38,371 bases of DNA from Solirubrobacteraceae bacterium (lineage in GTDB: Bacteria; Actinomycetota; Thermoleophilia; Solirubrobacterales; Solirubrobacteraceae). Positions 11,689 through 27,725 of this stretch are shown piece after piece (within the stretch, counting starts at the first letter, position 1; every line of letters starts with the position of its first letter). The notes below the pieces were generated by a model. It saw only the letters and a program-made list of their open reading frames with translations. It was not told where the DNA came from and searched no databases. Made by a program: the position numbers and the translations under genes. The stretch is taken from positions 1 to 38,371 of the forward strand of contig JAXDHK010000340.1 in NCBI GenBank assembly GCA_034664545.1. Direction: 5' to 3'.

Positions 11689-12107
11689 CCGACCGCGACG
11701 CCCTCTTCGGCGACGACCTGCGCCTGCGCGAGGTGAGCTGGGGCCTCGACCTGGTCGGAGCGGCCGGCGACCTCGACCTCGTCCACGGGGCGGACACGAT
11801 CAGCCAGGCGCTCCGGATGCGCCTGGTCGTCCGCCAGGGCGAGCTGGCGGGGGTCGGGTGGCCGGACTACGGGTCGCGCCTGCAGGAGCTGATCGGCGAG
11901 CCGAACCTGGCCCGGACCCAGGCCCGGGCGATGACGCTGGCCCGGGACGCGATCGAGGCGGACCCGCGGGTGGTCAAGGTGAGCCGGATCGGAGCGAGCG
12001 TCCCCTTCGGAAACCGCGATGTCGTCCGCCTGGACATGGACATCGACCTGATCACCGAGCCGACGCCGCTCAACCTCGTCGTCGACGTCGCGTTGGGAGC
12101 CCGATGA
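11685..12107 (+). CDS. gp25/GPW-like baseplate wedge protein, cluster 1
   Basis: GTGA overlap (11685/11688), 140 aa. GADTISQALRMRLVVRQGEL...YGSRLQELIGEP fits the GPW/gp25 pattern (compare GEDVRQAIRTILATSRGERQMRPEFGAGLDELLF in 31410-31835). It lies directly upstream of baseplate J. Confidence 0.6.
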   Translation: MTDRDALFGDDLRLREVSWGLDLVGAAGDLDLVHGADTISQALRMRLVVRQGELAGVGWPDYGSRLQELIGEPNLARTQARAMTLARDAIEADPRVVKVSRIGASVPFGNRDVVRLDMDIDLITEPTPLNLVVDVALGAR

Positions 12108-14068
12108 TCGATCCCGGCCATCCGTTCTCCACCGGGTTCGCCGACGTGATCGCGGCCGTCGAGGACCGGCTGCGAAACGGGACCGAGCAGCCGGCGAGGT
12201 GGCGGCCGGTGTTCCAGAAGGCGATCAACGCCTACGAGCTCCCGCAGGAGGCGAGCGGGATCACGTCGGTCGCGGGGAGGGTGGGCGGCGTCTACACGGT
12301 CTTCGCCCCGGCTTCGGGGGAGGTCCCGAGCGTCGGCGACTACCGGTTCGCGGACAATCGGCTGATCTGGGTCGACGGGGGCCGGCGGCCGACGGACCTG
12401 ACCCGGGTGGACGTCGAGTACACCTACCGAGAGCGCCAGTCCGGGCTGACCGACTTCAACGAGGGGAGCGTCGCCGGAACGCTCGTCCGGGCGGTCGCCC
12501 GGGAGATGACGACGATCTACGAGCAGATGGACCAGGCCTACCGGCGGGCGTTCATCGACGGGGCGTCCGGCGTCGCCCTCGACAGCGTCGTGGCCCTGGT
12601 CGGCGCGGTGCGCATCCCAACGATCAAGGCGACCGGCGCCGTGACCTACTCACGTCAGACGGCGGCTGGAGACGAGGTCAAGATCCCGGCGCGGAGCCGG
12701 GTCGCGGATCGTCAGGGACGGACGTTCTTGTCGGTCGCGGACGCGTCGATCCCACCCTGGCGGGAGGAGTTCGCCACCCAGACCGGTGGGGTGGTGCAGA
12801 CGGTCGACCAAATCGCGGCGGTCACCGGCACCGCGTCGGGCACGATCCTCGGGGTGTGGGCGGCGGCCACGGCGACCACGTTCGACCCGGGGAAGCCGCC
12901 GCCGCTCGGGCTGGTGGCCGACCCAGCGAAGCCGTTCGGCGGCGACGAGCGCACGATCGCGCTCGCCCCTCCCACCGGTGGCGCGGCGCTTCCCAACGAG
13001 GTACGCATCCGCTACAGCCCCAAGAGCGTGACCGTCGGGGTCGAGGCCGCCGTGGCCGGACCGGAGAGCAACGTCCCGGCGGGGACCGTCATCGTCATGC
13101 CGACTCCTCCTACCGGGATCAGCGGCGTAACCAACGAAGCGCCGATCGATGGGGGTCGGGTTGCCGAGACCGACGACCGTCTCCGCGAGCGGGCCAAGCA
13201 CGCGCTCGAGCGCGCGGGAAACGCCACGATCGGAGCGCTGCGGTTCGCCGTCCTCGGGATCGAGGGCGTAGACGAGGTCCAGGTCGTCGACTTCGCCGCC
13301 GACAGCACGCTCCCTCCCGGGGAGGTCCGGCTGCGCATCTCGGCCGCCCACCCCGACCTGGTGCGCGGGGGGGTCGAACGCGTGGTCGACGTGACGCGGG
13401 CGGCTGGGGTGCGGGTCACGATCGACGTGATCGAGACGGTGCTGGTCACTGGACGGTTCGTCCTCGTCCCGGACGTCGACGGGGCGCCGGGGGCGAAGGA
13501 CCAATTCATCGAGGCGGTGATCGCTGCCATGCTCGCCCTCCCGGTCGGGGCGCCGCTGCAGGCGCGCCGGCTGAACGCGCTCGCCTTCGGGATCGGCGGG
13601 CTCGCGGACGTGGTCGAGGCGCAGCTGACCACCGTCGGCGGGGTTCCCGCTCCGGATCCGCTCGTCGTCGATCCCGGTCGGGTCGTGCGTCCGGACCAGG
13701 CTCACCTCGGCACCATGCTGCTAGAGCGGCTCGAGGCGACGGTCAAGACGCCCGGGACACCGGAGATCACGGTGCGACTCCTCGACGCCGCGGGCACGGC
13801 GATGGCGGCGCAGCGCGTGGTCGGGCTCGACGCGTCGGTCGAGATCAGCGCGAGGCTGAAGACGTCGGCGACGCGCGCGCCCGAGATCGTGGGCACGTTC
13901 GCCGGCCGGTTGACGTTCGATCGGTCCACCGAGGCGACGCTCGAGGTGACGGCCGCGAACGCTCCGAACTTCCGACCCGACGATCACGATCCGACCGTCA
14001 CCGTCAAGATCGCCGCGAGCGCCTACCCCGGGCTCTTGCCGGCCACCACCCTCCTGGGGCTGAGGTAG
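12104..14068 (+). CDS. baseplate J-like protein (gp6/gpJ family), cluster 1
   Basis: ATGA overlap (12104/12107), 654 aa. It contains FNEGSVAGTLVRAVAREMTTIYEQMDQAYRRAFIDGASGVALDSVVALVG, typical of the Baseplate_J core. It sits between the gp25-like and gpI-like genes. Confidence 0.7.
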   Translation: MIDPGHPFSTGFADVIAAVEDRLRNGTEQPARWRPVFQKAINAYELPQEASGITSVAGRVGGVYTVFAPASGEVPSVGDYRFADNRLIWVDGGRRPTDLTRVDVEYTYRERQSGLTDFNEGSVAGTLVRAVAREMTTIYEQMDQAYRRAFIDGASGVALDSVVALVGAVRIPTIKATGAVTYSRQTAAGDEVKIPARSRVADRQGRTFLSVADASIPPWREEFATQTGGVVQTVDQIAAVTGTASGTILGVWAAATATTFDPGKPPPLGLVADPAKPFGGDERTIALAPPTGGAALPNEVRIRYSPKSVTVGVEAAVAGPESNVPAGTVIVMPTPPTGISGVTNEAPIDGGRVAETDDRLRERAKHALERAGNATIGALRFAVLGIEGVDEVQVVDFAADSTLPPGEVRLRISAAHPDLVRGGVERVVDVTRAAGVRVTIDVIETVLVTGRFVLVPDVDGAPGAKDQFIEAVIAAMLALPVGAPLQARRLNALAFGIGGLADVVEAQLTTVGGVPAPDPLVVDPGRVVRPDQAHLGTMLLERLEATVKTPGTPEITVRLLDAAGTAMAAQRVVGLDASVEISARLKTSATRAPEIVGTFAGRLTFDRSTEATLEVTAANAPNFRPDDHDPTVTVKIAASAYPGLLPATTLLGLR

Positions 14069-14073
14069 CCGGC

Positions 14074-15447
14074 GTGTCCGTGAAGACCGACCGCCTGACC
14101 GCGCTGCTGCCCGACGCCTACGGCGCGACGGAGTCGGAGTCCCTCCTCTCCCGTCTGCTCGACGCGGTCGCCGCCGAGCTGATGGTTGCCGACGACAAGG
14201 TGAAGGCGCTGCTCAAGTCCCACTGGGTCGACTACGCCGAGGACGCGGCGCTTGACGGGCTCGGGGCGATCTACGGCGTCGATCGCCGCCGGTTGCCCGA
14301 CGGAACGCCGGAGGGGGACGACGGGCTCCGGCGCCGGGTGCGGTCCGTCGTTCCCCTGTTCACTGGCGGCGGCACGAGGCGCGCCGTCACGGGGGCCGTC
14401 CGGTCCGCGCTCGGACTGCCCTTCGATCTCGCCACGCTCGACGTGCCGCCGGAGCTACGCGACGACCTCGAGCAGCTCGTAAGGCTCGACGAATTCCCGG
14501 TCACCGACGAAGAGGTCGAGTACGGGCCGACGCGGATCGTCGTCGAGCGCGTCGCGGAGGTTGGGGAGGAGGCCGCCCTCTACGTCGACATCGTGGCATA
14601 CGCGGCGGAGGTCGCTCCGGCGCGGATCACGTTGACGATGGGTTCAGCCGGCCTCGATCCGTCGATCGAATCGATCGGGTCGTCGTTCCGGGTAGGGGTG
14701 CGGACCGACCCCGCAAAGCCCCTGTTCCTCCCGGCCGGGAGCGTCGTCCACTTCGAGACGACCGCCGCCGGAGAGTTCAGTGCGGCGCTCGAAGGCTTCG
14801 GCGACGTGGGCGACCGGTTTGTCGGCCTCGACGGAGGCCCACCGCGCCTGCCGTCGGTACCCACCGAGCCGAGCCGCTGGCGCTTCGCCGCCCGGGGGGC
14901 GCAGTTCGACGTGTCCGGGTTCGACGCCCACTTCGACACCAGTCCGACCGACGACCAAGCGCGGTTCGACGAGATGACGTTCGACGGCTTCTTCGACGCG
15001 ACGCCGGACGACGGGGAGCCGTTCGATTCGCCGCACTTCGCCGTCGCGATGACCTGGACACGGGCGCAGCCGCTCGTGTTCGACCTCACGGTGCCGTGGT
15101 CGGCGGAGGCAGCCGTCGCGGCCATCCTCGGCCGGCATGGCTACACCGGCAAGGTGTTCGTGTTCGCCGGCCTGGGGCAGGATGCGGTCAAGCAGGTGGT
15201 CGAGCAGACGCGGGCGGCCGGGGTTCGAGCGAACCTGTACTTCTCGGTCCTGGCCGCCGAGGACCAGGACGTGCGCGAGTCCTTCTCGGAGGGCAGGCGC
15301 CTGGTCTCCGAGGACGCCGACGCCACCGATTCGCTCCGGCTCGCCCGGGCGAATCGCATGGTCGAGTCCCTCGACGCTCGCGACGCGGCTGGGGTCGCGA
15401 GCGATCTCGACATCGCAGCCTTCGACGGTTCGTTCGTCTTCACATGA
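14074..15447 (+). CDS. gpI-like tail/baseplate protein with long C-terminal extension
   Basis: GTG 14074 lies 5 nt after the J stop. The N-terminus LTALLPDAYGATESESLLSRLLDAVAAELM...LDGLGAIYGV is a P2 gpI / eCIS tail-protein signature. The C-terminal part contains an acidic FD-rich segment (FDVSGFDAHFD...RFDEMTFDGFFDATPDDGEPFD). Confidence 0.6.
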   Translation: MSVKTDRLTALLPDAYGATESESLLSRLLDAVAAELMVADDKVKALLKSHWVDYAEDAALDGLGAIYGVDRRRLPDGTPEGDDGLRRRVRSVVPLFTGGGTRRAVTGAVRSALGLPFDLATLDVPPELRDDLEQLVRLDEFPVTDEEVEYGPTRIVVERVAEVGEEAALYVDIVAYAAEVAPARITLTMGSAGLDPSIESIGSSFRVGVRTDPAKPLFLPAGSVVHFETTAAGEFSAALEGFGDVGDRFVGLDGGPPRLPSVPTEPSRWRFAARGAQFDVSGFDAHFDTSPTDDQARFDEMTFDGFFDATPDDGEPFDSPHFAVAMTWTRAQPLVFDLTVPWSAEAAVAAILGRHGYTGKVFVFAGLGQDAVKQVVEQTRAAGVRANLYFSVLAAEDQDVRESFSEGRRLVSEDADATDSLRLARANRMVESLDARDAAGVASDLDIAAFDGSFVFT

Positions 15448-15459
15448 GAGGAGAGCACC

Positions 15460-15951
15460 TTGCTTGAACGTACGGACATGCGCGGCGCGGTAGTGGTCGA
15501 GCTTTCGGACCGCTCGGGGACGGTAGTCCATAGGCAGCGTCAGGGGAACCGGATCGTCCTCAGCGGAAGGCGCCTGGTCGCGGACATGTTCGCGGGGACG
15601 GGGTCAGGGGGCACACCGACCAAGGTCACCCACGTCGGCGTCGGGACGGACGGGACCCCTCCGGCCGACGGCCAGACCGCGCTGCTCGCCGAGCGGAGCC
15701 CGCGGAGTCCGATCAGCCAGGTCGACGTCCAGAACGTGGTCGAGGGACAGGACTCCGACACGGTCCAGAGGTCGCGCGTATCGCTCACTGCGGTCTTTGA
15801 TTTCGACCAGGCGAACGGGACCGAGCCGCTCCGCGAGGCGGCCGTGTTCACCGCCGACGCGGACGGCGTCATGTACAACCGCGTGCTGCTCGATTCCGTC
15901 AGCAAGACAAACGCGTTCAAGCTAACCGTCCTCTGGGACATTGTTTTCTGA
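15460..15951 (+). CDS. hypothetical tail/fibre-region protein
   Basis: TTG 15460 lies 5-10 nt downstream of GAGGAGAG; ATG 15478 is an alternative start. 163 aa and beta-rich (VGVGTDGTPPADGQTALLAE...KLTVLWDIVF). It lies in the distal tail region after gpI. Confidence 0.45.
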   Translation: MLERTDMRGAVVVELSDRSGTVVHRQRQGNRIVLSGRRLVADMFAGTGSGGTPTKVTHVGVGTDGTPPADGQTALLAERSPRSPISQVDVQNVVEGQDSDTVQRSRVSLTAVFDFDQANGTEPLREAAVFTADADGVMYNRVLLDSVSKTNAFKLTVLWDIVF

Positions 15952-15965
15952 AGCTAAGGAGCCCC

Positions 15966-16547
15966 ATGACAGTCCCTCCAAACGTATATCCCAAGGGTCG
16001 CGGAGACGCGGTCAAGTCCCAAGATTGGAACGACGGCTTCGCCGAGGTCGATCGACTCGACGCGACGAAGGTGAGCACGACCGGCGGCCAGATTGACGGG
16101 ACGCTGGACGTGAAGCAACTCGTGGTGGCGGAACCGGTCCCGGCGCTCACGGTGGGCGACTTGACGGTGAATCAGAGCATGACGGTCCCGTCCGGCGCAC
16201 TGGGGGTTGTCCTCGGCATGCACCCGATCTTCCTGTCGGGACTCAACCTGCCCCACCAGACGACCGGGTTCCTCAGCATCGAGCAATATCCGGTCAACTC
16301 CCCCCCACTCGGGCCCCCGGCATTCTTCCGGCTCCTGTCCGCGAATCCGCCCACAGCGGTGACGGTCTTGAGCGAAGTGGTGACCGACGTCTCCAATTCG
16401 GTGTCGGGCCTCAAGGCGATCGTCCGCGTCTATTCGTTCCAGCAGATCTCGGGAGCGCCGATAACTCTCGACCTCGTTGTGTTCACATCGGTGCCGGAAT
16501 CGGACTTCAAGCCGGAATGGCGCGTTCGTAACCTCGGCGGCCTCTGA
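15966..16547 (+). CDS. short tail-fibre-like protein
   Basis: ATG 15966 is preceded by AAGGAG (15955-15960). The N-terminal YPKGRGDAVKSQDWNDGFAEVDRLDATKVSTTGGQIDGTLDV matches the common fibre N-terminal pattern (D-W-N ... K ... GG-x-h-x-G-x-L). It sits in the AT-richer part of the window. Confidence 0.5.
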   Translation: MTVPPNVYPKGRGDAVKSQDWNDGFAEVDRLDATKVSTTGGQIDGTLDVKQLVVAEPVPALTVGDLTVNQSMTVPSGALGVVLGMHPIFLSGLNLPHQTTGFLSIEQYPVNSPPLGPPAFFRLLSANPPTAVTVLSEVVTDVSNSVSGLKAIVRVYSFQQISGAPITLDLVVFTSVPESDFKPEWRVRNLGGL

Positions 16548-16565
16548 GCGGCGCGGCGCTCCGCG

Positions 16566-17375
16566 ATGTCTGGTGCTCCTGTCCTGCCCGCGGAGCTCGA
16601 AGTTGCTCTCGCGAGCCTCCTGCAGGCCTCGCTGCCCGGCCTCTTCGGCGGTGCGACGCCGGTCGTCCGCCTGACCGTCGCCACCGACGCCACCGAGATC
16701 TTGGCGCGGGAAGCGGAGGCCGTCGTGGGTGACCCGCGAGGCGACCCGCGCCCGGCCGACCAGGTCGACGAGCTGCCGTTCGACCGGACGAAGCCGGCGG
16801 GACCGTACACGCTCAGCCTCGCGCCCTATCCCGGTCCGCGCCGGGTGCGATTGGTCTCCCCGGGCGGGGTGACGCCCCTGGGCGACGCCGAGGTCGAGTG
16901 GGGCCAGGTAGATCCGCGCAAGTTGATCCTCCACCCAAGTGCCGGCCGGGACCTCTCGACGGTCACCGGCGTCGAGGTGCTCTACGGGGTGACCGCCGTC
17001 TTCGCGACCGTGGCGACGCGGCGGACGTTCGGGCTCTCGCTCGATGCCCAGCCGGCGGACACGTCGAGGCTCGCCGGGGCCGTCGCGCTCGCCCTGTCGG
17101 TGATCGAGCTCAACCGCGAGGCGCTGACCGCTGCGGCGTCGGTAACCTACGGCGGCGGCGACTACGGAGCCAGCTCGACGATCAAGCGCCTACGAATGGT
17201 CGGCGTGACCGCGCCGAAGAGCACCACGCGCCTCCTGACGCTCCAGGCCGACGCAACGCTCACGCTGAAGCGCGCCCTGCGCGAGTTCGAGGGCGCCCCG
17301 ATTGAGCACATACGTACCCCGGGTCGGGCTCCCGGCGGACGGCCGGTCGAGATCGACATCGGTCTGGGCGGTTGA
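16566..17375 (+). CDS. hypothetical protein, last gene of cluster 1 (weak DUF4255/cap-like resemblance)
   Basis: 269-aa ORF with high GC3. The N-terminal LEVALASLLQASLPGLFGG and the later RRTFGLSLDA...LAGAVALALSV loosely recall DUF4255 features of 23989-24879. The resemblance is too weak for a firm call. Confidence 0.45.
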   Translation: MSGAPVLPAELEVALASLLQASLPGLFGGATPVVRLTVATDATEILAREAEAVVGDPRGDPRPADQVDELPFDRTKPAGPYTLSLAPYPGPRRVRLVSPGGVTPLGDAEVEWGQVDPRKLILHPSAGRDLSTVTGVEVLYGVTAVFATVATRRTFGLSLDAQPADTSRLAGAVALALSVIELNREALTAAASVTYGGGDYGASSTIKRLRMVGVTAPKSTTRLLTLQADATLTLKRALREFEGAPIEHIRTPGRAPGGRPVEIDIGLGG

Positions 17376-17534: not shown

Positions 17535-17563
17535 TTGAACGGATCGGCTTAACCGCACATACT
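17535..17563 (+). promoter_or_regulatory. sigma70-like promoter, apparently leaderless for the 17571 gene
   Basis: TTGAAC (17535-17540), a 17-nt spacer, then CATACT (17558-17563). ATG 17571 lies 8 nt after the -10 hexamer and has no Shine-Dalgarno sequence. The promoter sits in a 195-nt intergenic gap. Confidence 0.4.
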
Positions 17564-17570: not shown

Positions 17571-20500
17571 ATGGCGGCGCCGACGCTGACCCGCGAGGAG
17601 GCACCCAAGGTGTCTGCGCCCGCCAAGGCGCCGCCCCAGGCGGGGCCGGATGCCGCCGATCCCCTTCGCTCGGCCTATTCGAGCTTCCGCGACGTCCTCG
17701 AGGTGATCGGGAACAACCAGGCCGTCCAGCTGTTCCTGCCGGCCAGAGCAGCGGTCAAGGAAACGGCGAAGCCGAAGCCCGTGTCGACCGGTGACCCCCG
17801 GGCCGGGGCCGCCACCACTCCCGCCACGTCGGTCAACGTCAACCGGTTGGCCGTCGAGGCCGTTCCGGCGGACAAGGCCGCCTCCGTGGGCCAGGCCACC
17901 TCGCAGACGCCAGCCGCCCCGACCGGCAGGCCACAGGCGGCGGTCGGCCTCCCCATCGACAAGTTCGTCTACCAGCTCGCGAGCGACATCCAATCGCTGA
18001 GCAACCAGGCGGTCGCCGACTTCCTCGGCGCGATGGCCTCCGGAGGGGCGCTGAAGCAAGTCCTCGCCCGCTACCGGGAGCTCCACCAGACCACGGTGCG
18101 GGACGCGCTCATCGCCGCCAATCGGTCGGGAGACGACAGTCGCCCCTGGCACTTCGTGCGGGCGATGGCCACGCTCTACGGAGGTGACGGCGCCGAGGAC
18201 GAGCCCTGGGCGCAGATGGGCCTGTCGGTGATACCCCCGGGAACGGCCGATGAGAACCTCTACCGCCTCCTGACCGAGCGCAAGCTCCCCCAGCGCCTGA
18301 GGCTCAAGGCGACGTACAACCAGGCGTTCGCCGGCATCGGCCTGACCCCGAACGACACGCTCGAGGAGCATGTCGCGGCCGACACATGGAGCTTCGAGCG
18401 CCAGCGGGCGCTCGCGCTGCTCGACCACGACCTCACCGACGCGGATCACCTGTCGTTCGTGACCACGGCCATCGTCGGCGCCCACCAGACCACCGCGCTC
18501 GAGATCCTCCAGCGCGACTGGCGCGACGGCATGGCCTCGTTCGACCGACTCTTCGCCGACTGGGATCGCTACGTGAAGGCACCGGGCTACACAAAGCTCG
18601 GGCTCGAGGCGGCGATGGACAGCGAGCTGACCGGCCTCGAGGTCGACGTGGCGAGGTACATCTTCCAGGAGTACCACGCGGTGAAGGAGGGTAGGTACTC
18701 CTACCCGGTGGCCGCCAGCATCGTGGCGTCCTCCACGGTCTCCCGCGGGCTGAGCGGCGGCATTCTCACCACCGACGCCCGCGCGATCAAGACCGGTGCA
18801 CGCGATCTGCGCCTCGCCGTCGAAGCCGAGCAGAAGGCGGACCCCACGCGTCCCTCGACGATCCCCGGCACGCTCCGCGACAGCGCCCAGGAGAAGATCA
18901 AGGCGGGCGCCGTCAGTCTCGGCGACCCAGACCGGGTCGAGGCCCTGATCCAACTCGACCGCGAGCCGACCTACGCCGACCGGATCTACCTCGCCTCCCG
19001 ACGCGGGCAGTACGCCGACGCGCTCGCCAAGGCGATCGGCGCCTGGAAGAGCGGAGAGGAGGGCACGATCGACCGGGACCTCCGGGCCGGGTCCGACCCC
19101 CGCCCGGCGCTCGCCGGACACGTCATCCCCCCCGCCGACGAGAATGCCCCGGCCTACAGCGCCCTGACCCACCCCGGCCTCTCCCACGCCGAGCGCGGGG
19201 CCGTGCGCCTGGAGCTCGCCCTCCACAGCCTCACGGGCGACACCAAGGCGGACGAGCTCGCGGCTGCCGCTCAGTTCCTGAGGATCATCGACCCGAAGTC
19301 GCGCAAGCTCGTGATCGAGGCCTACGTGGCGCGCTATCTCGACTCGGCGACCGGCCGGCGGTTCGGGACGGTGCGTGAGGAGGGGACCCCCACGGCGGGG
19401 GACGCCCAGGAGCGCTTCTACCGGGCGGTCCAGACCGCCGCCAGCGGGTTCGAGGAATCGGTGACCCTGGTCGACCTCCTCCGCCTGATCCGTCCGGAAG
19501 CCGGACTCAAGGACACCTTGAAGCTGGCCGAGCGACGCGAGGCCGCCACCCACACCGGCCGCGTCGACGACCTCGCCACCGCCATGGTGGCGATCTACGA
19601 CGAGCTCACCGCCGAGCACACGATCGAGTTCGCCGACGCGGCGCTCAGGCGTCTGCGCCGGTGGGTGCACCTCGCCGAGGTCAAGCCCGACGAGCTCCGG
19701 GCCATCGCGGAGGCCGAGGGCGTCACGACGGTCACCGAGCTGGCGACCAAGAGCTACGACGAGCTCGCCGCGCGGCTCGACGAGGTCCGGTCGGTCAAGA
19801 ACACCATCTCCCAGGCGGTGGGGACGTTCGCCGACATCGCCGTCCGCTCGTTCTTCGTCGCCCTCGGCGGCCCGGCCGGACTACCCGGCCTCGCCTCCGC
19901 GCTCGGAGCCCAACTCGCCGGGATCGCCGTGCGCGGGGGCCTCCTCGGCGCCGAGTATCAGTCGGTCAGCAAGGCGACCATCTCGAACGCGGTCGGCGAC
20001 ATCGCCGCGCTCGGCCTCTTCGAGGGGCTGAAGATCGAGAGCGTCATCCAGGAGCTCGTCCCCAAGGGCGCCCTCCGCGGGAAGGTCGGCAAGCTCGGGG
20101 TGACCGAGGGCACAGGGATCCTCGAGCGCCAGGGACTGACCGAGCTGCAGGCCAAGTTCGTCCAGGACTCCCTCACCCAGATGGGGTCGAAGCTGTTCGA
20201 GAAGTCCGCCCAGAACGCGGTCGAGAACCAGCCCTTCCCCGGCATCGGCGAGATCCTCGCCCGGGCGGGCTACGCCCTCACCGTGGCCGGGTTCAAGGGC
20301 CTGGCCAGCGTGATCAACGTGAAGGCCGACATCTTCGCCTCGCCCGCGCAGCGACTGAGGACCAACGTAGGCGCGACCCTGCTCAAGGGACCCCCGCCCA
20401 AGTTCTCGCTCGGTCCCGCCATGTTCAAGGAGATGACCGACATCTGGCAGTCGCCGGACTCGGCCAACGCCACGTTCGCGGAGAAGCTCGTGCGGGTGAG

Positions 20501-20687
20501 CAAGGTGGGCGTGGCGTCGCTCGTCAGCGCTTTGCCCGTCGCGGGCGCCTTCACCGTCCTCGGCGAGCGGGAGGCCGCGGAGCTTCGAGCGGGGGCGGGG
20601 GGCGATCCCGAGGATTACCTCAACCGTCTCGTCCTGCGGCCCCCCACCTTCAGCCGGACGGTGGTCAGGCCGCCCGCCCGGCGGTGA
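17571..20687 (+). CDS. 1038-aa orphan protein; candidate CIS payload (GNNQAVQ leader motif, annexin-like repeats, hydrophobic C-terminal region)
   Basis: Long ORF with high GC3. Residues 45-56 read VIGNNQAVQLFL. Units such as GTADENLYRLLTERKLPQRLRLKATYNQAF...SFERQRALALL look annexin-like. The C-terminal roughly 300 aa are rich in Gly/Ala hydrophobic stretches (FFVALGGPAGLPGLASALGAQLAGIAV...). Confidence 0.7.
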   Translation: MAAPTLTREEAPKVSAPAKAPPQAGPDAADPLRSAYSSFRDVLEVIGNNQAVQLFLPARAAVKETAKPKPVSTGDPRAGAATTPATSVNVNRLAVEAVPADKAASVGQATSQTPAAPTGRPQAAVGLPIDKFVYQLASDIQSLSNQAVADFLGAMASGGALKQVLARYRELHQTTVRDALIAANRSGDDSRPWHFVRAMATLYGGDGAEDEPWAQMGLSVIPPGTADENLYRLLTERKLPQRLRLKATYNQAFAGIGLTPNDTLEEHVAADTWSFERQRALALLDHDLTDADHLSFVTTAIVGAHQTTALEILQRDWRDGMASFDRLFADWDRYVKAPGYTKLGLEAAMDSELTGLEVDVARYIFQEYHAVKEGRYSYPVAASIVASSTVSRGLSGGILTTDARAIKTGARDLRLAVEAEQKADPTRPSTIPGTLRDSAQEKIKAGAVSLGDPDRVEALIQLDREPTYADRIYLASRRGQYADALAKAIGAWKSGEEGTIDRDLRAGSDPRPALAGHVIPPADENAPAYSALTHPGLSHAERGAVRLELALHSLTGDTKADELAAAAQFLRIIDPKSRKLVIEAYVARYLDSATGRRFGTVREEGTPTAGDAQERFYRAVQTAASGFEESVTLVDLLRLIRPEAGLKDTLKLAERREAATHTGRVDDLATAMVAIYDELTAEHTIEFADAALRRLRRWVHLAEVKPDELRAIAEAEGVTTVTELATKSYDELAARLDEVRSVKNTISQAVGTFADIAVRSFFVALGGPAGLPGLASALGAQLAGIAVRGGLLGAEYQSVSKATISNAVGDIAALGLFEGLKIESVIQELVPKGALRGKVGKLGVTEGTGILERQGLTELQAKFVQDSLTQMGSKLFEKSAQNAVENQPFPGIGEILARAGYALTVAGFKGLASVINVKADIFASPAQRLRTNVGATLLKGPPPKFSLGPAMFKEMTDIWQSPDSANATFAEKLVRVSKVGVASLVSALPVAGAFTVLGEREAAELRAGAGGDPEDYLNRLVLRPPTFSRTVVRPPARR

Positions 20688-20802
20688 ACATTCTGACACG
20701 TTGCCTGGGGCCCTTTCGCCCGTGCGGTAGGAGGGTTATGATCAGTGGGTCCAGTCAGTCCCCATGTGCCACGGCGGCGCGTGCCCGCGGCGGAGGCCCC
20801 GG

Positions 20803-21462
20803 ATGCCAATCAGCATTGTCGTCGTCGTCGAGGTGCGCCTCTACCGGGAGGCCGTCGTCCGGGCGCTGAGTGACCAGGACGACCTGCGTCTCCTGGGCGA
20901 GGGCGACTCCGCCCGCGTGGCGCTGATCGAGATCGCGCGTTCCCAGCCCGACGTCGTGCTGCTCGACCTCGGGATCCCCCATGCCCTCGATGCCGTGCGA
21001 CAGGCGCGTGCCGTCGCGCCCGAGACGAAGATAGTGGCACTCGGCTTCGGCGGCACCGATGCCGAAGTGGTGGCCGCGGCCGAGGCCGGGCTCGGTGGAT
21101 ACATCGGAGTCCACCAACCACTCGACGATGTCATCACCGCCATCCGCGGCGTCGTGCGCGGCGAGGCGCCCTGTGACGGGCTGATCGCCGCGGCCCTCCT
21201 CCGGCGGGTGGCCGCCCGGGCCGGGGAGGTCGATTCCGCTCCGGTCCTGGCCGAGCTCACCTCACGCGAGCGCCGCATCCTCGAGCTCCTCGCCCGCGGG
21301 CTCTCGAACAAGGAGATCGCCAGCGAGCTCGTGATCGGCCTGGCGACGGTGAAGACCCACGTCCACGCCATCCTCCGCAAGCTCGAGGTGAGTCGGCGCG
21401 GCGCGGCCGCCGACGTGTTCAGGCGCGCCCAGGTGATCGGCGCCGGCTCCCGGGCCGCCTAG
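20803..21462 (+). CDS. LuxR/NarL-family response regulator, atypical receiver domain
   Basis: ATG 20803 lies 6 nt after GGAGG (20792-20796). The receiver-like N-terminus has the acceptor Asp in PDVVLLDLGIP. The C-terminal LuxR HTH reads LTSRERRILELLARGLSNKEIASELVIGLATVKTHVHAILRKL. Confidence 0.85.
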   Translation: MPISIVVVVEVRLYREAVVRALSDQDDLRLLGEGDSARVALIEIARSQPDVVLLDLGIPHALDAVRQARAVAPETKIVALGFGGTDAEVVAAAEAGLGGYIGVHQPLDDVITAIRGVVRGEAPCDGLIAAALLRRVAARAGEVDSAPVLAELTSRERRILELLARGLSNKEIASELVIGLATVKTHVHAILRKLEVSRRGAAADVFRRAQVIGAGSRAA

Positions 21463-21644
21463 CCCAGCCGGGCCCCGCCGGACCGACTCAGGTCACCCGA
21501 AGGGTGGACGCCGGTCCATCCCCGATCCATCTCCTTTCCACCCTTGAGCCGATGTGGCGTGGTGCCCACCCTCGGATGATTAAGGCCAGGTGAGCTACGA
21601 CGTACGAGGTTCCATCCACATCGAATGCCGGAGCCCGGATCCGC

Positions 21645-21992
21645 GTGCATCTCGTCGACCTCCCGCAGATGCTCCACGACGCCGTCCGCGACGCTCTGGC
21701 CGGAGCGGCGTTCGAGCTGGCGATGGGCCCTCCCCCTCCCGGGCCGGCGCCCGGGGTCACCGTTCTCGTCATGCCGGCCCGGGTCGAGCCCGGTCTCTGG
21801 ATCGAGCAGCTGACACGCCGCCCCGACGCATCGATCCTCTTGATCGAGCCCCGGGACTGCGAGGCCGCCCTCGTCGAGCTGCGCCCGGAGCGCCGGTATC
21901 TCGGCATCCTCGACGCCCCACGGATCGCCGATGCCATCCGTTCGGCCTCGGCCTGGGAGGCGCGGGTGACGGCGGCCGTGACCACGAAGTGA
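21645..21992 (+). CDS. small hypothetical protein translationally coupled to the ATPase
   Basis: 115-aa ORF with GTG 21645 (ATG 21669 is an alternative start) and high GC3. Its TGA (21990-21992) overlaps ATG 21992 of the ATPase. No family was recognised. Confidence 0.45.
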   Translation: MHLVDLPQMLHDAVRDALAGAAFELAMGPPPPGPAPGVTVLVMPARVEPGLWIEQLTRRPDASILLIEPRDCEAALVELRPERRYLGILDAPRIADAIRSASAWEARVTAAVTTK

Positions 21993-23992
21993 TGGAGGCC
22001 GGCGCCGTCACCGCCCCGGTCACCCCCCTGCTCGAATGGGCGGCGGCGGTACTCGCCGGCGCGCTCGACGCCGCCGGAGAGCTGCCGGCCGCGGCCGGCG
22101 GGATCGAGGCCCTCCGAGGGCTCGTGCTCTCGCCCGAGTCCGTCCGCGACCGGCTCCGGAGCGCCCGCTCCGCGCCGGTTGCCGCCTCTGCGCCACCGCC
22201 CCTCCCGGACTCGCTGCTCGGGCCCCTGCGCCGGCTCGGGGCCGACGCCTTCGAGCTGGCGGCGATCGGTCTCGCCGTCGCCGTCGAGCTCGACCCGGCG
22301 GCCGCCCGCGCCGTGGCCTACCTCCACGACGACATGCGACTTCGCCGCCTCTCCGTCGACCTCCTCGCCGCCCTCTGCGCCGATCTGGCCGGCGACTGGA
22401 CGGCCGGGAGGCGATGCCTGGCCCCGTCCTCCCGGCTGGTGACCCGCGGACTCCTCGAGGTCACTGCCGCCGGGGGCGACGCCGAGGTCCGGGCGACCCC
22501 GGCGCTCGCCGGTCACGTCGTCGGGATGCACCACCTCGCCCCCGAGCTCGTCGCGGCGCTCGGCACGGCGGCCGCCATCCCGGTCGCGACCCATCATCCG
22601 GCGGTGACGCGCTGGGCAGAGGCCCCCGATCAGGCCGTTCTCCACGTGCACGGAGCCGGTCCCGACGTTCTCGGTGCCCGCGTCGCGGCCTCCCTCGACC
22701 GGGCGGGCCGTCCCGCCGTCGAGGTCGACCTGGCCGCCCTCGACGAGGCGCACGCGCGCGGCCTCTCCGCCCACTGCCTGCTCGGCGATCTCGCGGCCAT
22801 GCTCGTGCTCCCGCGCGAGGGCCACCCCGCGCTCGGATCCCTGCTCGGCTCGATCGACGCGGTGTGCCTCGTGGACCAGGGACTCGCCCTCTGGCAGTCC
22901 CCCTCGGCGAGCACGCTCCGCCCGGTGGCCTCCGTGGAGCTGGCCTCACTCGAGGTCTCCGAACGCGCAGCGGCGGTCGCCGAGGGGCTCCGCGACGGCG
23001 GCATCCGTCTCGCCGACCCCGACGGAGCGCTTCCCTTCGCCCGGCGCTACCGCCACGGCCCCGACGCGATCGCCAAGGTCGCCGGCGCGACCCGGGCGCG
23101 CCTGCGCGCCGAGGAGCGCTCGACGGCGCGCGACACCGACATCCTCGCCGTGGCGGCGGTGCTCGCCGGCGCCCCGCTGCGCGACCTCGCCACCCGGGTG
23201 GACCGGGTCGCCGGTTGGGCCGACCTGGCCGTGCCCGAACCGATCGCCGACGAGCTTCGGGAGCTCTGCGCCCGGGTCGACGTCCGAGACGCCGTCCTCG
23301 GCGACCGGGGCTACGCGCGCACGCTCGGCACCGCCCGGGGGGTGAGCGCCCTGTTCGCCGGGCCGAGCGGGGCCGGCAAGACGCTCGCCGCCTCGGTCGT
23401 GGCCTGCGAGCTCGGGCTCGCCCTCTACCGCGTCGACCTCGCCCGGATCGTCTCGAAGTACATCGGCGAGACCGAGCGCAACCTCGAAGCCGTCTTCGCC
23501 GCCGCCGAGTCGACCGACGTCGTGCTCCTGTTCGACGAGGCCGATGCCCTGTTCGGCCGGCGCTCCGAGGTCCACGACGCCCACGACCGGTACGCCAACC
23601 TCGAGGTCGCCTACCTGCTCCAGCGCATGGAGGTCTACGACGGCGTGGCGATCCTCTCGACCAACCTCCTGCGCAACCTCGACGAGGCCTTCACCCGGCG
23701 CCTGGACTTCCGTGTCCTCTTCCCGTTTCCCGCCGCGGCCGAGCGTCGGCGGATCTGGCGCCTGATGTGGCCGCCCGGCGAGCGACTCGCCGACGACGTC
23801 GACCTCGACGCGCTCGCCCTCGAGCACGAGCTCTCGGGCGGGATGATCCGCAACGCCGCGCTCGCCGCCGCCCACCTGGCCGAGACCGAGCGGGCGATGG
23901 TCTCGAGTCGCCATCTCGAGCACGCGATCGCCCGCGAGCACGACAAGCTCGGGCACCTCCCGCGCATCTCGACCGCGGAGCCCGGGCGATGA
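21992..23992 (+). CDS. eCIS AAA+ ATPase (Afp15/Pvc15-like)
   Basis: Walker A GPSGAGKTLAA, Walker B VVLLFDEADALFG, and a CDC48-like C-terminus. The N-terminal LRRLGADAFELAAIGLAVAVELDPAAARAVAYLHDDMRLRRLSVDLL is typical of Afp15-type ATPases. The start was chosen at the TGATG overlap with the upstream ORF. Confidence 0.9.
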   Translation: MEAGAVTAPVTPLLEWAAAVLAGALDAAGELPAAAGGIEALRGLVLSPESVRDRLRSARSAPVAASAPPPLPDSLLGPLRRLGADAFELAAIGLAVAVELDPAAARAVAYLHDDMRLRRLSVDLLAALCADLAGDWTAGRRCLAPSSRLVTRGLLEVTAAGGDAEVRATPALAGHVVGMHHLAPELVAALGTAAAIPVATHHPAVTRWAEAPDQAVLHVHGAGPDVLGARVAASLDRAGRPAVEVDLAALDEAHARGLSAHCLLGDLAAMLVLPREGHPALGSLLGSIDAVCLVDQGLALWQSPSASTLRPVASVELASLEVSERAAAVAEGLRDGGIRLADPDGALPFARRYRHGPDAIAKVAGATRARLRAEERSTARDTDILAVAAVLAGAPLRDLATRVDRVAGWADLAVPEPIADELRELCARVDVRDAVLGDRGYARTLGTARGVSALFAGPSGAGKTLAASVVACELGLALYRVDLARIVSKYIGETERNLEAVFAAAESTDVVLLFDEADALFGRRSEVHDAHDRYANLEVAYLLQRMEVYDGVAILSTNLLRNLDEAFTRRLDFRVLFPFPAAAERRRIWRLMWPPGERLADDVDLDALALEHELSGGMIRNAALAAAHLAETERAMVSSRHLEHAIAREHDKLGHLPRISTAEPGR

Positions 23993-24879
23993 TCGGGGCC
24001 GCCGACGCCATCCTCCGCCGGGTCCTGACCGACGGCGTGCCCGGCATGACCTCCGACCGGATCTCCTTCCAACCGCCCGACGAGGTCTGGCGAACCCGCG
24101 TCGGCGCGAGCAAGGGCGTCAGCATCGACGTCTACCTGGCCGAGATCGACGAGGATCGCGACCTGCGCACCAGCGCCGTCGACCGGGTGATCGACGGCGG
24201 GATCGCCCGCGACCGCCGGGCACCTGAGCGGGTGCGCCTGACCTACCTGATCTCGGCCTGGAACGCCGCCAAGGACTCGGTGGCGACCGCCGCCACCGAG
24301 GCCGAGCACGACACCCTGTCCTTCGTCCTTCAGGCGCTGCTCCGGGCGTCCCCGCTCAACGCGTCACGGATCCTGCCCCCGACGGCCCTCGCCAGCGTCC
24401 CGGTCGGGATGCGCGAAACGGACCTTCCGACGAGGATCGCCGTCTCCGAGGCCCTCGACAAGCTCAGCCACTTCTGGGGCACCATGGGCGCCACCCACCC
24501 GCACAAGCCGGTGATACCCGTCCTCGTGACGGTGCCCGTGACCTACCCGGAGACGATCACCGACGGGGTCGTGTTCACGATCGACACCGGCCTCGGCTCC
24601 GAGCGCCTGATCGAGGTCGGCGGGCACGTGTACGACGCGGTCGGACCCAACGCCGCCCATCCCCGTCCGGTCGCCGACGCCGCGGTCGTGTTCACCACGC
24701 TCGCCGGCCGCCGAGCGGCCGGTACCCGGGCCGCGAGCGACGGCCGCTTCGTCGTCGACGGCCTGACTCCCGGCACCTATCACCTGAGCTTCACGGCCGA
24801 CGGCTACGCAGCTCCCCCGCCGGTTCCCATAACCCTGCCCACACCCTCCGGCGGCTCCCTCGAGCTGCTGTTCACCTGA
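23989..24879 (+). CDS. DUF4255 tail cap/terminator protein (Afp16-like) with C-terminal CarboxypepD_reg-like beta-sandwich
   Basis: ATGA overlap (23989/23992). The N-terminus ILRRVLTDGVPG...ISFQPPDE...SIDVYLAEIDEDRDLR and RLTYLISAW fit DUF4255. The C-terminal SDGRFVVDGLTPGTYHLSFTADGY is a carboxypeptidase-regulatory-like motif. Confidence 0.75.
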   Translation: MIGAADAILRRVLTDGVPGMTSDRISFQPPDEVWRTRVGASKGVSIDVYLAEIDEDRDLRTSAVDRVIDGGIARDRRAPERVRLTYLISAWNAAKDSVATAATEAEHDTLSFVLQALLRASPLNASRILPPTALASVPVGMRETDLPTRIAVSEALDKLSHFWGTMGATHPHKPVIPVLVTVPVTYPETITDGVVFTIDTGLGSERLIEVGGHVYDAVGPNAAHPRPVADAAVVFTTLAGRRAAGTRAASDGRFVVDGLTPGTYHLSFTADGYAAPPPVPITLPTPSGGSLELLFT

Positions 24880-24893
24880 AGCCAAGGAGAGCC

Positions 24894-26879
24894 ATGTCCG
24901 TCCAGGTGTCCTACCCCGGCGTCTACATCGAGGAGTTCGAGCCCGCCGCCCCGATCGAGGGTGTGTCCACCAGCCACGCCGCCTTCATCGGCATCGCCGA
25001 GCGGGGACCGAGCAACGTGCCGACGCTCGTCACCAGCCTGGACGACTTCACGCGCGTCTTCGGCGGCCCCGTGGACGGAGCAGTGCCCTACTACCTGCCC
25101 ACGAGCGCCGAGGGCTTCTTCCGCAACGGGGGAAGCGTCCTCTACGCGCTGCGCGTGTCGACGGCGGCCAACGCCTCCAAATCGTTCCTCTCCCGGGGCG
25201 CGAGCCCGCCGCCCGCCGCGCCGGTCCTCACGGCGACCGCGCTGACCGAGGGCGGCGCCGGCAACGGCATCGCGGTCACCGCGGCGGACTCGTCGGCGCT
25301 CGCCAAGGCCCTGGCGGCGATCAAGCCCACCCCGCCGCCCAAGCCGACGCTCGCGCTCGCCAACGCCTCGACGCCGGCGAGCGCCCTCGACCCCACCGGG
25401 CGGATCCTGACCGTGGCCCAGAGCTCGAGCTTCGCACCCGGCGACAACGTCCTCGTCGTCGACGCCACCAACAAGCGTCCGGGCACGATCAGCGCCGTTC
25501 CCGACTCCACGACGATCGTCCTCGGTGCGGGGCTGACCGGACCGCTCGCCGCCGGATCGACGGTGAAGCTCGCCGACCTCGCCCTCGGCGACACGCTCAT
25601 CCGCCTCACCGTGCCGCTGGGGCTGAACCTCCGCCAGGCGGTCCCGGCCGGGACGCTCGTGGCGATCGGAGCGACGGGATCGACCGAGGTCGCGGTCGTC
25701 GCCGCCGTCACCGCCGACTCGGTCACCCTGACCCGAGGGCTGAGCGTCGCCCACGCGCGCAACACGGCCGAGCTGGCCTCGGCGGAGTTCGATCTCACGG
25801 TGACGGGCACCGGCGGCGAGGTCGAGACGTTCACCTTGCTCTCGACCTCGCCGAACCATCCGCGCTACTGGAAGACGGCGACCGACTCGAGCGCGCTCGT
25901 GAGCTTCTCGCGACCGGACACGCTCCCGCCGGGCGCCGCGCCGGACCCCCGGCCCAAGCCCGCCACGATCACCCTCGCCGGGGCGGCCAACGACGATCCC
26001 GCCGCCGCGTGGAACACGCAGCTCGCGGCCAACATCCACGCCTACCTCGACGCGCTCGCCCGGATCGACGACATCAGCATCGTCGCCGTTCCGGGATGCA
26101 CCGAGCAGGGGGTGCAGCAGGCGCTCGTCGAGCACTGCGAGTCCCTCTGGGACCGCTTCGCCATCCTCGACGCCGTCAAGGGCGCCGACCTGACCGCTGT
26201 CCGCGCCCAGCGAGCCACCCTGACGGGCACGCTCGACAAGGGCTTCGGCGCGCTCTACCACCCCTGGATCCAGGTGCGCGACTCCGCCAAGCAGGCCATC
26301 GTCGACCATCCGCCGTCCGGGCACCTCGCCGGGATCTACGCGAAGATCGACACGACGCGAGGGGTCCACAACGCCCCGGCCAACCTCGGCATCGCCACCG
26401 CGCTCGGCGTGACCCAGCGCCTGACGAACGCCGACCAGAGCGTCGTGAACCTCGAGGGCGTGAACCTCATCCGAATCCTCCCCGGTCGCGGCGTCCCCGT
26501 GGTCTGGGGCGCGCGGACCACCGCGGGCGACCGCAACTGGCAGTACGTCAACATCCGCCGGCTGTTCCTCTTCCTCGAGGAGTCGATCCAGCAGGGCCTC
26601 CAGCCGAACGTCTTCCTGCCCAACGACCTCGCCCTCTGGGAGCGGGTCAAGCGCACGCTCAACGAGTTCCTCGGCCGGGTCTGGCGGGACGGCGCGCTGT
26701 TCGGCGCCACCGCCAAGGAGGCCTACTACGTCCGCGTCGACGAGGCGCTCAACCCCCCGAGCACGCGCAAGCTCGGGCGGCTGAACATCGAGATCGGCGT
26801 GCAGCCGGTGTACCCGGCCGAGTTCATCGTCGTCCGGATCGGCATCTGGGACGGCGGCAGCGACATCAGCGAGAGCTAG
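24894..26879 (+). CDS. contractile tail sheath protein (Afp2-4/Pvc2-like)
   Basis: AAGGAG RBS upstream. The N-terminus MSVQVSYPGVYIEEFEP...STSHAAFIGIAERGP is classical for sheath proteins. It also has YHPWIQV, NAPAN and GVNLIRILPGRGVPVWGARTT motifs. 661 aa. Confidence 0.92.
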   Translation: MSVQVSYPGVYIEEFEPAAPIEGVSTSHAAFIGIAERGPSNVPTLVTSLDDFTRVFGGPVDGAVPYYLPTSAEGFFRNGGSVLYALRVSTAANASKSFLSRGASPPPAAPVLTATALTEGGAGNGIAVTAADSSALAKALAAIKPTPPPKPTLALANASTPASALDPTGRILTVAQSSSFAPGDNVLVVDATNKRPGTISAVPDSTTIVLGAGLTGPLAAGSTVKLADLALGDTLIRLTVPLGLNLRQAVPAGTLVAIGATGSTEVAVVAAVTADSVTLTRGLSVAHARNTAELASAEFDLTVTGTGGEVETFTLLSTSPNHPRYWKTATDSSALVSFSRPDTLPPGAAPDPRPKPATITLAGAANDDPAAAWNTQLAANIHAYLDALARIDDISIVAVPGCTEQGVQQALVEHCESLWDRFAILDAVKGADLTAVRAQRATLTGTLDKGFGALYHPWIQVRDSAKQAIVDHPPSGHLAGIYAKIDTTRGVHNAPANLGIATALGVTQRLTNADQSVVNLEGVNLIRILPGRGVPVVWGARTTAGDRNWQYVNIRRLFLFLEESIQQGLQPNVFLPNDLALWERVKRTLNEFLGRVWRDGALFGATAKEAYYVRVDEALNPPSTRKLGRLNIEIGVQPVYPAEFIVVRIGIWDGGSDISES

Positions 26880-26888
26880 GAGACAGCC

Positions 26889-27326
26889 ATGACCACTGGG
26901 GTGCTGGTGGACCCATACCCGGGTTACAACTTCCACGTCGAGATCGACGGGATCAGCCGCGGGGCCTTCGAGGAGGTGACGGGCCTGGACTCGACCGTCG
27001 ACGTGGTCGAGTACCGGGAGGGCGGCTGGAACACCACGCCGCACAAGTTCCCGGGCCAGACCAAGCACGCGAACATCGTGCTCAAGCACGGGATGGCGAG
27101 CGACCGCGACCTCACCAACTGGCACCAGAACGTCGTCGAGGGCACGATCGACCGCCGGAACGGGTCGGTGATCCTCCTGGACCGCCGGGGAACCGAGGTC
27201 GCCAGATGGAACTTCATCCGGGCCTGGCCGACCAAGTACACCGCTCCGAGCTTCAACGCCAAGACGAGCGACATCGCGATCGAGACCCTCGAGCTGGCCC
27301 ACGAGGGCCTCGAGCGGGTGAGCTGA
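26889..27326 (+). CDS. tail tube protein (T4 gp19-like, Afp1/5-like)
   Basis: AGGAGA RBS upstream. DPYPGYNFHVEIDGISRGAFEEVTGLDSTVDVVEYREGG...KFPGQTKHANIVLKHG is the conserved eCIS/gp19 tube signature. 145 aa. Confidence 0.9.
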   Translation: MTTGVLVDPYPGYNFHVEIDGISRGAFEEVTGLDSTVDVVEYREGGWNTTPHKFPGQTKHANIVLKHGMASDRDLTNWHQNVVEGTIDRRNGSVILLDRRGTEVARWNFIRAWPTKYTAPSFNAKTSDIAIETLELAHEGLERVS

Positions 27327-27327
27327 G

Positions 27328-27711: not shown

Positions 27712-27725
27712 ACGAGGAGATGGCC
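27690..27725 (+). promoter_or_regulatory. stem-loop 5 nt downstream of the slippery site (possible frameshift stimulator)
   Basis: GGCTATCCCCTCG (27690-27702) pairs with CGAGGAGATGGCC (27713-27725). That gives 13 positions: 11 Watson-Crick pairs, 1 G:U wobble and 1 C:A mismatch, with a 10-nt loop. The 3' arm covers ATG 27720 and the adjacent GAGGAG. Confidence 0.4.

Follow-up and report, generated by a model that had tools for sequence, protein, structure and literature searches.

A 1038-residue protein encoded between two clusters of contractile-tail genes in a Solirubrobacteraceae bacterium is a divergent bacterial annexin-repeat protein, in which an annexin-type helical core is preceded by a disordered N-terminus and followed by a Gly-rich helical C-terminal module. 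Its gene lies on contig JAXDHK010000340.1 of GenBank assembly GCA_034664545.1, and the whole stretch analysed, positions 1 to 38,371 of the forward strand, is called the window here. We tentatively read the protein, at somewhat less than an even chance, as a cargo or effector of a contractile injection system (CIS). An original prediction, made from the letters of the window, had described it as an orphan payload with a leader motif, annexin-like repeats and a hydrophobic C-terminus.

Annexin-type repeats in the core

The gene and the parts of its product considered in this section are as follows.

17571..20687, + strand: gene of the 1038-residue protein, stop codon included (list of open reading frames (ORFs), translation)
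17952..19820, + strand: conserved all-alpha core, residues 128-750 (AlphaFold2 predicted local distance difference test (pLDDT) mostly >90; annexins by Foldseek)
17952..18431, + strand: repeats R1 (residues 128-208) and R2 (residues 209-287), of five-helix type, with sequence-level annexin homology
18432..18692, + strand: repeat R3 (residues 288-374), by hhalign; a five-helix unit by DSSP
18966..19235, + strand: repeat R5 (residues 466-555), R3-related by hhalign

Direct scans of the protein were negative. The Pfam Annexin model (PF00191) matched neither the whole protein nor its sub-segments, including residues 128-380, even at E ≤ 10, and neither the protein nor three sub-segments of it gave an accepted match when scanned with Pfam, NCBIfam and PHROGs. 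A sub-threshold match to Phage-MuB_C was judged to be chance. A profile of the three closest sequences, when searched against the PDB, placed annexin A1 on top in the correct register at an E value of only 0.027, and a profile of 66 family members, the target included, matched annexin VI at E = 1e-27 (100 bits). With the latter profile, 80 distinct PDB sequences were matched at E < 1, and the best 60 of the 80 were all annexins or annexin-A2 fusion chains. The annexin VI match spanned profile columns 107-257, which cover two repeats in a row and equal residues 128-287 of the target. Of 33 relatives, 7 matched Pfam Annexin themselves (E ≤ 0.001), and the highest score, 29 bits, exceeded the gathering score of 25 bits.

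The AlphaFold2 model of the protein, built with the family alignment, was compared with the PDB by Foldseek, and the top 50 matches were nearly all annexins (annexin VI first, with 780 columns aligned, then A1, A5, A4 and others; E = 5e-5 to 1e-2, probability 1.0). The helical units that the original prediction had taken for annexin repeats lie where it placed them, at residues 224-365 (nt 18240-18665), and their annexin-like nature is supported indirectly by the 66-member profile, by Foldseek and by the matches of the relatives, the direct Pfam scan being negative. Superposition on annexins was poor (target-normalised TM-score 0.19-0.35, root-mean-square deviation 14-25 Å), and the compact disc of four repeats was not found in the model. 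As the TM-scores were low, the repeats are annexin-like but their global arrangement is not; either the repeats may be arranged differently, or the inter-repeat geometry of the model may differ.

Comparison of segments by hhalign gave a probability of 95% for R1 and R2, 57% for R2 and R3 (E = 1e-4), and 95.5% for R3 and R5 (E = 1.5e-8), indicating at least four repeats detectable by sequence, and the helical segments R4, R6 and R7 showed no repeat signal by the same method. Taking GxGT followed by an acidic residue about 38 residues downstream as the type II Ca2+ site, we found a partial signature in R2 alone, consisting of PPGT (residues 222-225) and of D271, which sits in a DT.S context and is invariant in the family; this suggests that R2 may bind Ca2+. 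The remaining AB loops were degenerate, and the AB-loop motifs of the protein as a whole were more degenerate than the family consensus.

DUF4157 in many relatives and toxin domains in a few

The word orphan proved too strong. A word-indexed search found just three relatives (47-50% identity), and with the three-sequence profile HMMER found 121 clusters, 73 of them at E < 1e-30, when 1.84 billion representatives were searched exhaustively; pattern scans added three loci in genomes and two in metagenomes. In a second word-indexed search, words from DUF4157 dominated the 66-member alignment used as query, and just six unrelated DUF4157 proteins came back. Common to the relatives is a core of about 700 residues, as a rule followed by the C-terminal module or at least its beginning, and many reach lengths of 1300-2000 residues. 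The core was found in 92 of the 94 family members of at least 600 residues. A hidden Markov model (HMM) built from 54 distant members only matched target residues 26-1008 at E = 5.5e-135, and properties of the family are therefore transferable to the same columns of the target.

When 33 distant relatives were scanned with Pfam, 23 had the eCIS_core/DUF4157 domain (best E = 6e-60), and a census with a local HMM found it in about 34 of 94. Single relatives end in Ntox4, WHH nuclease or Colicin-DNase domains, and about 23 members have the motif LLxLQRxAGNxAVxxLL at residues 33-75, some of them together with DUF4157. The domain order is invariably leader, DUF4157, core and C-terminal module, and a short form lacking a toxin is common in the family.

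Several side observations were made on these sequences. The LLxLQRxAGNxAVxxLL motif also occurs in an unrelated DUF4157 protein, P0129, and other DUF4157 members (among P0014-P0073) have an N-terminal motif of the type PDDxYExEAD-xxAxxVM instead; either one might serve generally for the recognition of DUF4157 proteins. A full-text literature search for LQRxAGNxAV-type strings found no paper. In the homologue P0004 (metagenome-assembled genome (MAG) MFD04212.bin.2.126; contigs L003/L007, 12445-12471), the reading frame shifts near residue 840, so that the annotated C-terminus is spurious; an indel from long-read sequencing, or else a pseudogene, probably accounts for the shift. The relative P0007 (contig L014) comes from metagenome sample 3300044829, as does contig L017, which encodes the identical 200-residue product of cluster 1 in the same gene order, and P0007 and the window-type gene could be paralogues in one population or come from related co-resident strains.

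A disordered N-terminus with a candidate leader element

17571..17951, + strand: Ala/Pro-rich disordered region, residues 1-127 (AlphaFold2 pLDDT, composition)
17646..17738, + strand: candidate leader element, residues 26-56 (PDAADPLRSAYSSFRDVLEVIGNNQAVQLFL), by alignment to P0007 and position

The disordered start that had been predicted was borne out by the AlphaFold2 model, with pLDDT values of 31-50 over residues 1-125, and residues 1-127 consist of Ala to 23% and Pro to 13%. By composition and hydropathy, there was no Sec- or Tat-like hydrophobic segment in the N-terminus, nor any hydrophobic segment ahead of residue 750. As in proteins of cargo type, a disordered and hydrophilic N-terminus without a Sec/Tat signal precedes the folded body, and it is comparable to the loading sequences described for cargo of extracellular CIS (eCIS) in the preprint 10.64898/2026.05.27.728243.

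Translation confirmed that residues 45-56 read VIGNNQAVQLFL, and a regular expression of this motif type (GN, one or two residues, A, an aliphatic residue and a hydrophobic pair) had a single match in the six-frame translation. Residues 26-55 aligned with residues 48-77 of P0007 (BLASTP E = 1e-4), which is the nearest relative having the element (42% identity overall), and a weak helix was predicted at residues 31-46 in the AlphaFold2 model. In position, the element is equivalent to the LQRxAGNxAV motif of about 23 relatives.

A Gly-rich C-terminal module

19821..20645, + strand: Gly-rich bundle of long helices, residues 751-1025 (separate AlphaFold2 model, family census)
19824..19940, + strand: Gly/Ala-rich semi-hydrophobic helices (GPAGLPGL...ALG), residues 752-790 (Kyte-Doolittle hydropathy)
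20505..20564, + strand: transmembrane-like helix, residues 979-998 (VGVASLVSALPVAGAFTVLG; Kyte-Doolittle peak 1.98, 20 uncharged residues)

The C-terminal module, modelled separately, reached a pLDDT of 80.5, and its first part was present in 81 of 94 family members. Gly is enriched in the last roughly 290 residues, at 12.2% compared with 6.6% in the core. Residues 752-790, the most widely conserved portion of the module, have Kyte-Doolittle peaks of 1.2-1.43 over 19 residues and are uncharged from 760 to 780, and the subfamily shows no variation at G767, P768, G773 and L774. The sole segment above the classical hydropathy threshold for transmembrane helices is VGVASLVSALPVAGAFTVLG. The Gly/Ala-rich hydrophobic C-terminus of the original prediction is thus present as Gly enrichment, as the stretch 752-790 and as the transmembrane-like helix; the membrane insertion that it had proposed is compatible with hydropathy, which suggests that the module may insert into a membrane, but finds no structural match. 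Membrane and tape-measure proteins were abundant in the non-significant Foldseek lists of the module and were not counted as evidence.

The gene and its upstream region

The ORF at 17571-20687 is a real gene. Its codon-position GC of 0.70/0.50/0.93 (0.93 at third positions) is of coding type, in a window with a G+C content of 68-80% whose + strand holds all convincing genes, and two metagenome contigs have a gene call of 99.7% identity in the same gene neighbourhood. Since an in-frame stop codon stands at 17550-17552, the ATG at 17571 is the earliest possible start. One putative signal was read from the upstream sequence.

17535..17563, + strand: weak promoter-like element, TTGAAC (17535-17540), 17 nt, CATACT (17558-17563)

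This element matches 8 of 12 consensus positions, under the scan threshold of 9 of 12, and ends 7 nt 5ʹ of the ATG. A sigma-70 consensus scan of 16500-21700 gave zero promoter-like sites, so the promoter that had been ascribed to the gene comes down to this sub-threshold sequence. As there is no Shine-Dalgarno sequence between the element and the ATG, the mRNA may be leaderless. Nothing above chance came from a terminator scan or from RNA folding of the intergenic regions on either side of the gene. The upstream gap, said to be the only long one, is at 195 nt indeed the longest between gene calls, but other gaps measure 120, 127 and 133 nt and, by metagenome gene calls, 182 and 320 nt.

Two different contractile clusters flank the gene

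180..17375, + strand: cluster 1, contractile tail-like (Pfam, PHROGs, NCBIfam)
20764..38272, + strand: cluster 2, Afp/PVC-like CIS (Pfam, NCBIfam)
21590-23992, + strand: AAA+ ATPase gene of cluster 2 (Pfam/NCBIfam)

The gene follows the last gene of cluster 1 and precedes the LuxR regulator of cluster 2, as predicted. Cluster 1 runs from small tube-like genes through DNA_circ_N, a 1156-residue tape-measure-like protein, an RHS-repeat protein, a gpD-like hub, a gpV-like spike, gp25, Baseplate_J and a wedge protein to three small genes of no recognised family. Neither an AAA+ ATPase nor a Pvc16 gene was found in it. On a longer metagenome contig, L016, which encodes a 200-residue product identical to that of the window in the same gene order, a sheath gene of cluster 1 (646 residues; L016 6048-7988) sits just upstream of what is window position 1, and unrelated genes (GH65, Imm8, PadR) directly precede it. 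As cluster 1 has its own sheath gene, two different contractile systems stand head to tail.

Cluster 2 comprises a LuxR-type regulator (20764), the AAA+ ATPase, a Pvc16 cap, a sheath, a gp19 tube, CIS_tube-LysM, VgrG-related proteins, PAAR, gp25 and three Baseplate_J genes. Cluster 1 is thus of a type with tape-measure and RHS proteins and without ATPase or cap gene, and cluster 2 is of an Afp-like type with both. The AAA+ ATPase and Pvc16 genes lie 0.9-3.3 kb downstream of the 1038-residue gene on the same strand, so that the gene adjoins a CIS operon with an Afp15-type AAA+ ATPase. No tail-fibre-like gene was recognised in either cluster.

Within cluster 1, the RHS/YD-repeat protein with an Rhs-associated core is encoded at 6347-8728, between the tape-measure-like and hub genes. 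The region of about 240 residues C-terminal to the Rhs core had no Pfam match and contains LYEHELFHTKQQ (about 8528-8581), which resembles the DUF4157 zinc motif LLAHELTHVVQQ (local HMM E of about 0.1-0.2). This weak HELFHTKQQ motif, which is without Pfam support, lies about 9 kb upstream of the 1038-residue gene, and the RHS protein may be a spike-associated toxin of cluster 1. The DNA_circ_N gene (200 residues, 2176-2778) and the tape-measure-like gene (1156 residues, 2899-6369) share one reading frame, separated by a single stop codon (2776-2778) and 120 nt without a start codon, and the same split occurs in metagenome contigs L016 and L017; it might reflect readthrough or a gene that was once fused. 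In cluster 2, when 23 kb of the window was compared with the near-identical metagenome contig L004, 8 of 13 mismatches fell within 420 nt at 27898-28321, where the gene calls conflict (a 235-residue ORF starting at GTG, or a 42-residue DUF6760 gene, a 320-nt gap and a 127-residue gene).

Discussion

How the protein might act as a CIS cargo

As a cargo or effector, the protein would be made in the cytoplasm without a signal peptide, as a member of a family usually fused to eCIS_core (DUF4157) or to the LQRxAGNxAV leader. The disordered N-terminus of 127 residues, with its conserved element at residues 26-56, would direct association with the particle or loading into it; after firing, the annexin-type repeats (residues 128-750) would bind membrane phospholipid, and the Gly-rich hydrophobic helices (residues 751-1025, including the transmembrane-like 979-998) would insert into the bilayer and perturb it. 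In the longer relatives, where the core and C-terminal module stand ahead of nuclease or toxin domains, these parts may form a membrane-engaging delivery part, and the 1038-residue protein would be a short form without a toxin, whose membrane module is itself the active part. Cluster 2, which alone of the two has an AAA+ ATPase gene, is the most plausible host system.

A broader version, which we consider rather unlikely, would make the core and C-terminal module a self-contained and widely reused device for membrane engagement and translocation of proteins delivered by CIS, comparable to the translocation domain in AB toxins, and the VIGNNQAVQLFL/LQRxAGNxAV-class helix a portable loading signal for actinobacterial CIS, with the 1038-residue protein as a minimal example that combines the signal and the delivery module and has no enzymatic toxin. 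A description of such a portable loading signal was not found in the literature searched.

Comparison with known proteins

About 30 bacterial annexins have been surveyed, some of them actinobacterial and some fused to DUF4157, toxin or transmembrane regions, and a role in toxin processing or delivery was proposed (Kodavali et al. 2014, PMC3894181). Like those annexins, for example the Haliangium ochraceum proteins, the 1038-residue protein has five-helix repeats in a large bacterial protein with hydrophobic or transmembrane segments, its relatives have the order DUF4157, annexin and toxin, and the role proposed, membrane binding for toxin delivery, is alike. Compared by description, it differs in lacking DUF4157 and a toxin and in having repeats too divergent for Pfam, and it adds about 450 residues of helical core and a conserved C-terminal module of 275 residues that were not described in that survey.

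DUF4157 has been reported as an eCIS core marker with high specificity for eCIS loci that identifies toxins, many of which have very long linkers, and Annexin is among the eCIS-associated domains (Geller et al. 2021, PMC8213781). As in these eCIS-associated toxins, the family has an N-terminal marker, a very long linker and a variable C-terminal toxin, and the window gene stands beside CIS structural genes; in contrast to them, the 1038-residue protein has no marker domain, and the other family contexts read lie outside CIS loci. DUF4157-annexin-toxin proteins are thus already described bioinformatically in these two studies, and the 1038-residue protein is a new, stripped-down member.

In AlgoCIS, eCIS cargo was shown to load through a disordered N-terminal sequence with the help of the AAA+ ATPase, DUF4157 being dispensable (preprint 10.64898/2026.05.27.728243). 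The 1038-residue protein resembles AlgoCIS Cgo1/Cgo2 and PVC Pdp1/Pnf in its long disordered N-terminus before a folded body, in the adjoining CIS with an AAA+ ATPase and in its size, as about 110 kDa is within the known range of cargo. There is no sequence similarity to Cgo1/Cgo2, Pdp1 or Pnf, and Cgo1/Cgo2 have DUF4157, which the 1038-residue protein lacks. The actinobacterial CIS effectors Tme of S. davawensis (PMC11126660) and Sle1/Sle2 of S. lividans (PMC13277306) are tape-measure-related, coiled-coil and alpha-helical proteins with predicted transmembrane helices and a link to DUF4157, encoded beside structural genes. An alpha-helical fold, a predicted transmembrane helix, a place by structural genes and a DUF4157 link of the family are shared with them. 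However, the core is annexin-like, unlike in Tme and Sle1, no tape-measure match was found by PHROGs or Pfam, and tape-measure matches of Foldseek in BFVD had E > 2. No small DUF4157 partner like Sle2 was found in the window.

Points against a CIS role, and other explanations

Several results weigh against a role as cargo or effector. The 1038-residue protein has no DUF4157 by Pfam, NCBIfam or an HMM of 34 family DUF4157 segments and no HExxH anywhere in its sequence, no toxin domain was recognised in it by Pfam or NCBIfam, and no DUF4157 domain (PF13699, E ≤ 0.01) was found in 31 window ORFs. In an ungapped comparison with the LQRxAGNxAV leader HMM, the VIGNNQAVQLFL motif scored a non-significant 2.2 bits, rank 7 in a set of 350 composed of 8 listed proteins and window ORF fragments, and the comparison by hhalign was weak and likewise non-significant (P = 0.014). 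The element is absent from P0002-P0006, the closest clade (47-50% identity). MAFFT alternatively aligned residues 25-70 with the start or first strands of DUF4157 (G.PL...FG.D..VRVH), again without significance. As the leader HMM, the DUF4157 HMM and hhalign were all non-significant, we claim neither homology to the leader nor a remnant of the DUF4157 start. The GNQAVQ-type motif of DUF4157 proteins named in the original prediction is therefore right for the family but unproven for this member. In addition, a profile of the nine-member close subfamily did not reach annexins in the PDB, and the C-terminal module had no significant Foldseek match in the PDB or BFVD (E > 0.8), to pore formers or otherwise.

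The contexts of the homologues point the same way. We read L001-L003, L006, L008, L009, L010, L012-L015 and the contig of P0029, several of them 4-8 kb long and some with one or two neighbour genes, and no CIS genes were found in the available flanks of other homologues in 11 contigs with about nine different neighbourhoods; three look-ups of context by exact sequence gave no record. L001-L003, one of them a MAG, share a syntenic site of aldehyde dehydrogenase/EamA...BacA/PPIase, L006 and L008 have metabolic neighbour genes, and L010 is a housekeeping metK-priA-coaBC-rpoZ region; next to relatives of 31-50% identity we found aldehyde dehydrogenase and BacA, G6PD and a GDSL lipase, ThiF and amylases, or metK, priA and coaBC. 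Homologues occurring mainly outside CIS loci had been named beforehand as a finding that would speak against a payload, and every other context read is of this kind. The arrangement with both clusters recurs in independent metagenome contigs, in near-identical strains only. These contexts are not decisive, because genes for injection-system effectors are often encoded apart from the structural loci. The payload claim thus retains the eCIS_core domains of 23 of 33 relatives, the nuclease or toxin ends of a few and the CIS flanks, and lacks a DUF4157 or toxin domain of its own, a significant leader and CIS loci around the homologues.

Two observations on these contigs stand apart. A GDSL-family lipase gene lies directly downstream of the homologue in two unlike contexts, on different strands (L008 12969-13766; L014 5304-6272), which could reflect chance or a lipid-related functional link. 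Two neighbours in L008 (200 and 1148 residues) were considered as counterparts of cluster 1 genes by size and rejected, having no similarity; the 1148-residue protein has a metallo-beta-lactamase domain.

The explanation that survives best next to the cargo reading is possible, if doubtful: a membrane-associated annexin that acts independently of CIS, in membrane remodelling, repair or a stress response, and whose place between the clusters is incidental. The housekeeping and metabolic neighbours of the relatives at 31-50% identity, the missing N-terminal element in the closest clade and the absence of toxin and DUF4157 domains from the target all fit such a protein. It accounts poorly for the conserved two-cluster arrangement in independent metagenome contigs, near-identical as their strains are, and the frequent separation of effector genes from structural loci takes force from the argument by context; in 23 of 33 distant relatives, the protein is joined to a domain whose reported occurrence is highly eCIS-specific (PMC8213781).

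A membrane tether or adaptor appears improbable. Here, the protein would be anchored at the cytoplasmic membrane by the annexin repeats and the transmembrane-like helix, with its N-terminus touching a baseplate, and would recruit or trigger a cytoplasmic CIS as CisA does in S. coelicolor, or replace the tail fibre of cluster 1. CisA (SCO4242) is a bitopic CIS membrane adaptor of 468 residues with an unstructured N-terminus and a periplasmic substrate-binding-like domain, and actinomycete CIS of the CisA type are cytoplasmic (PMC12237407). Immediately ahead of the gene are the baseplate and wedge genes of cluster 1, where a fibre or adaptor gene is usually found next, and neither cluster has a recognised fibre gene. 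A disordered N-terminus joined to membrane-binding and transmembrane-like parts, and a gene next to those of the baseplate in an actinomycete CIS, are broadly shared with CisA (PMC12237407). However, the 1038-residue protein differs in its annexin array and in a hydrophobic helix near the C-terminus followed by about 40 residues, which leaves no CisA-like extracytoplasmic domain; the N-terminal eCIS_core and C-terminal nuclease or toxin domains of the relatives form an effector architecture, and the homologues are unlinked to CIS loci.

Least probable of all is a decayed polymorphic-toxin scaffold of little or no function, left by a DUF4157-annexin-toxin gene that lost its metallopeptidase domain and toxin: the MAFFT alignment to the DUF4157 start and the degenerate AB loops would agree with it, but that match is not significant, the ORF is intact with a strong coding bias, the core is modelled at pLDDT > 90, many residues are invariant across the clade of 47-50% identity, and toxin-less short forms are common in the family.

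Meaning of the finding

Actinobacterial CIS effectors are few and hard to recognise, and those described are tape-measure-related. Should the 1038-residue protein prove to be loaded and delivered, a class of effectors based on annexin repeats and aimed at membranes would join them, and the protein would offer a compact test case for the role of the very long linkers of DUF4157 toxins and for the loading feature recognised in a disordered N-terminus. If it has nothing to do with CIS, what remains is a divergent annexin from a bacterium, well modelled but ordinary. A family of about 120 sequence clusters, most of which current Pfam models miss, is added to the few bacterial annexins catalogued so far.

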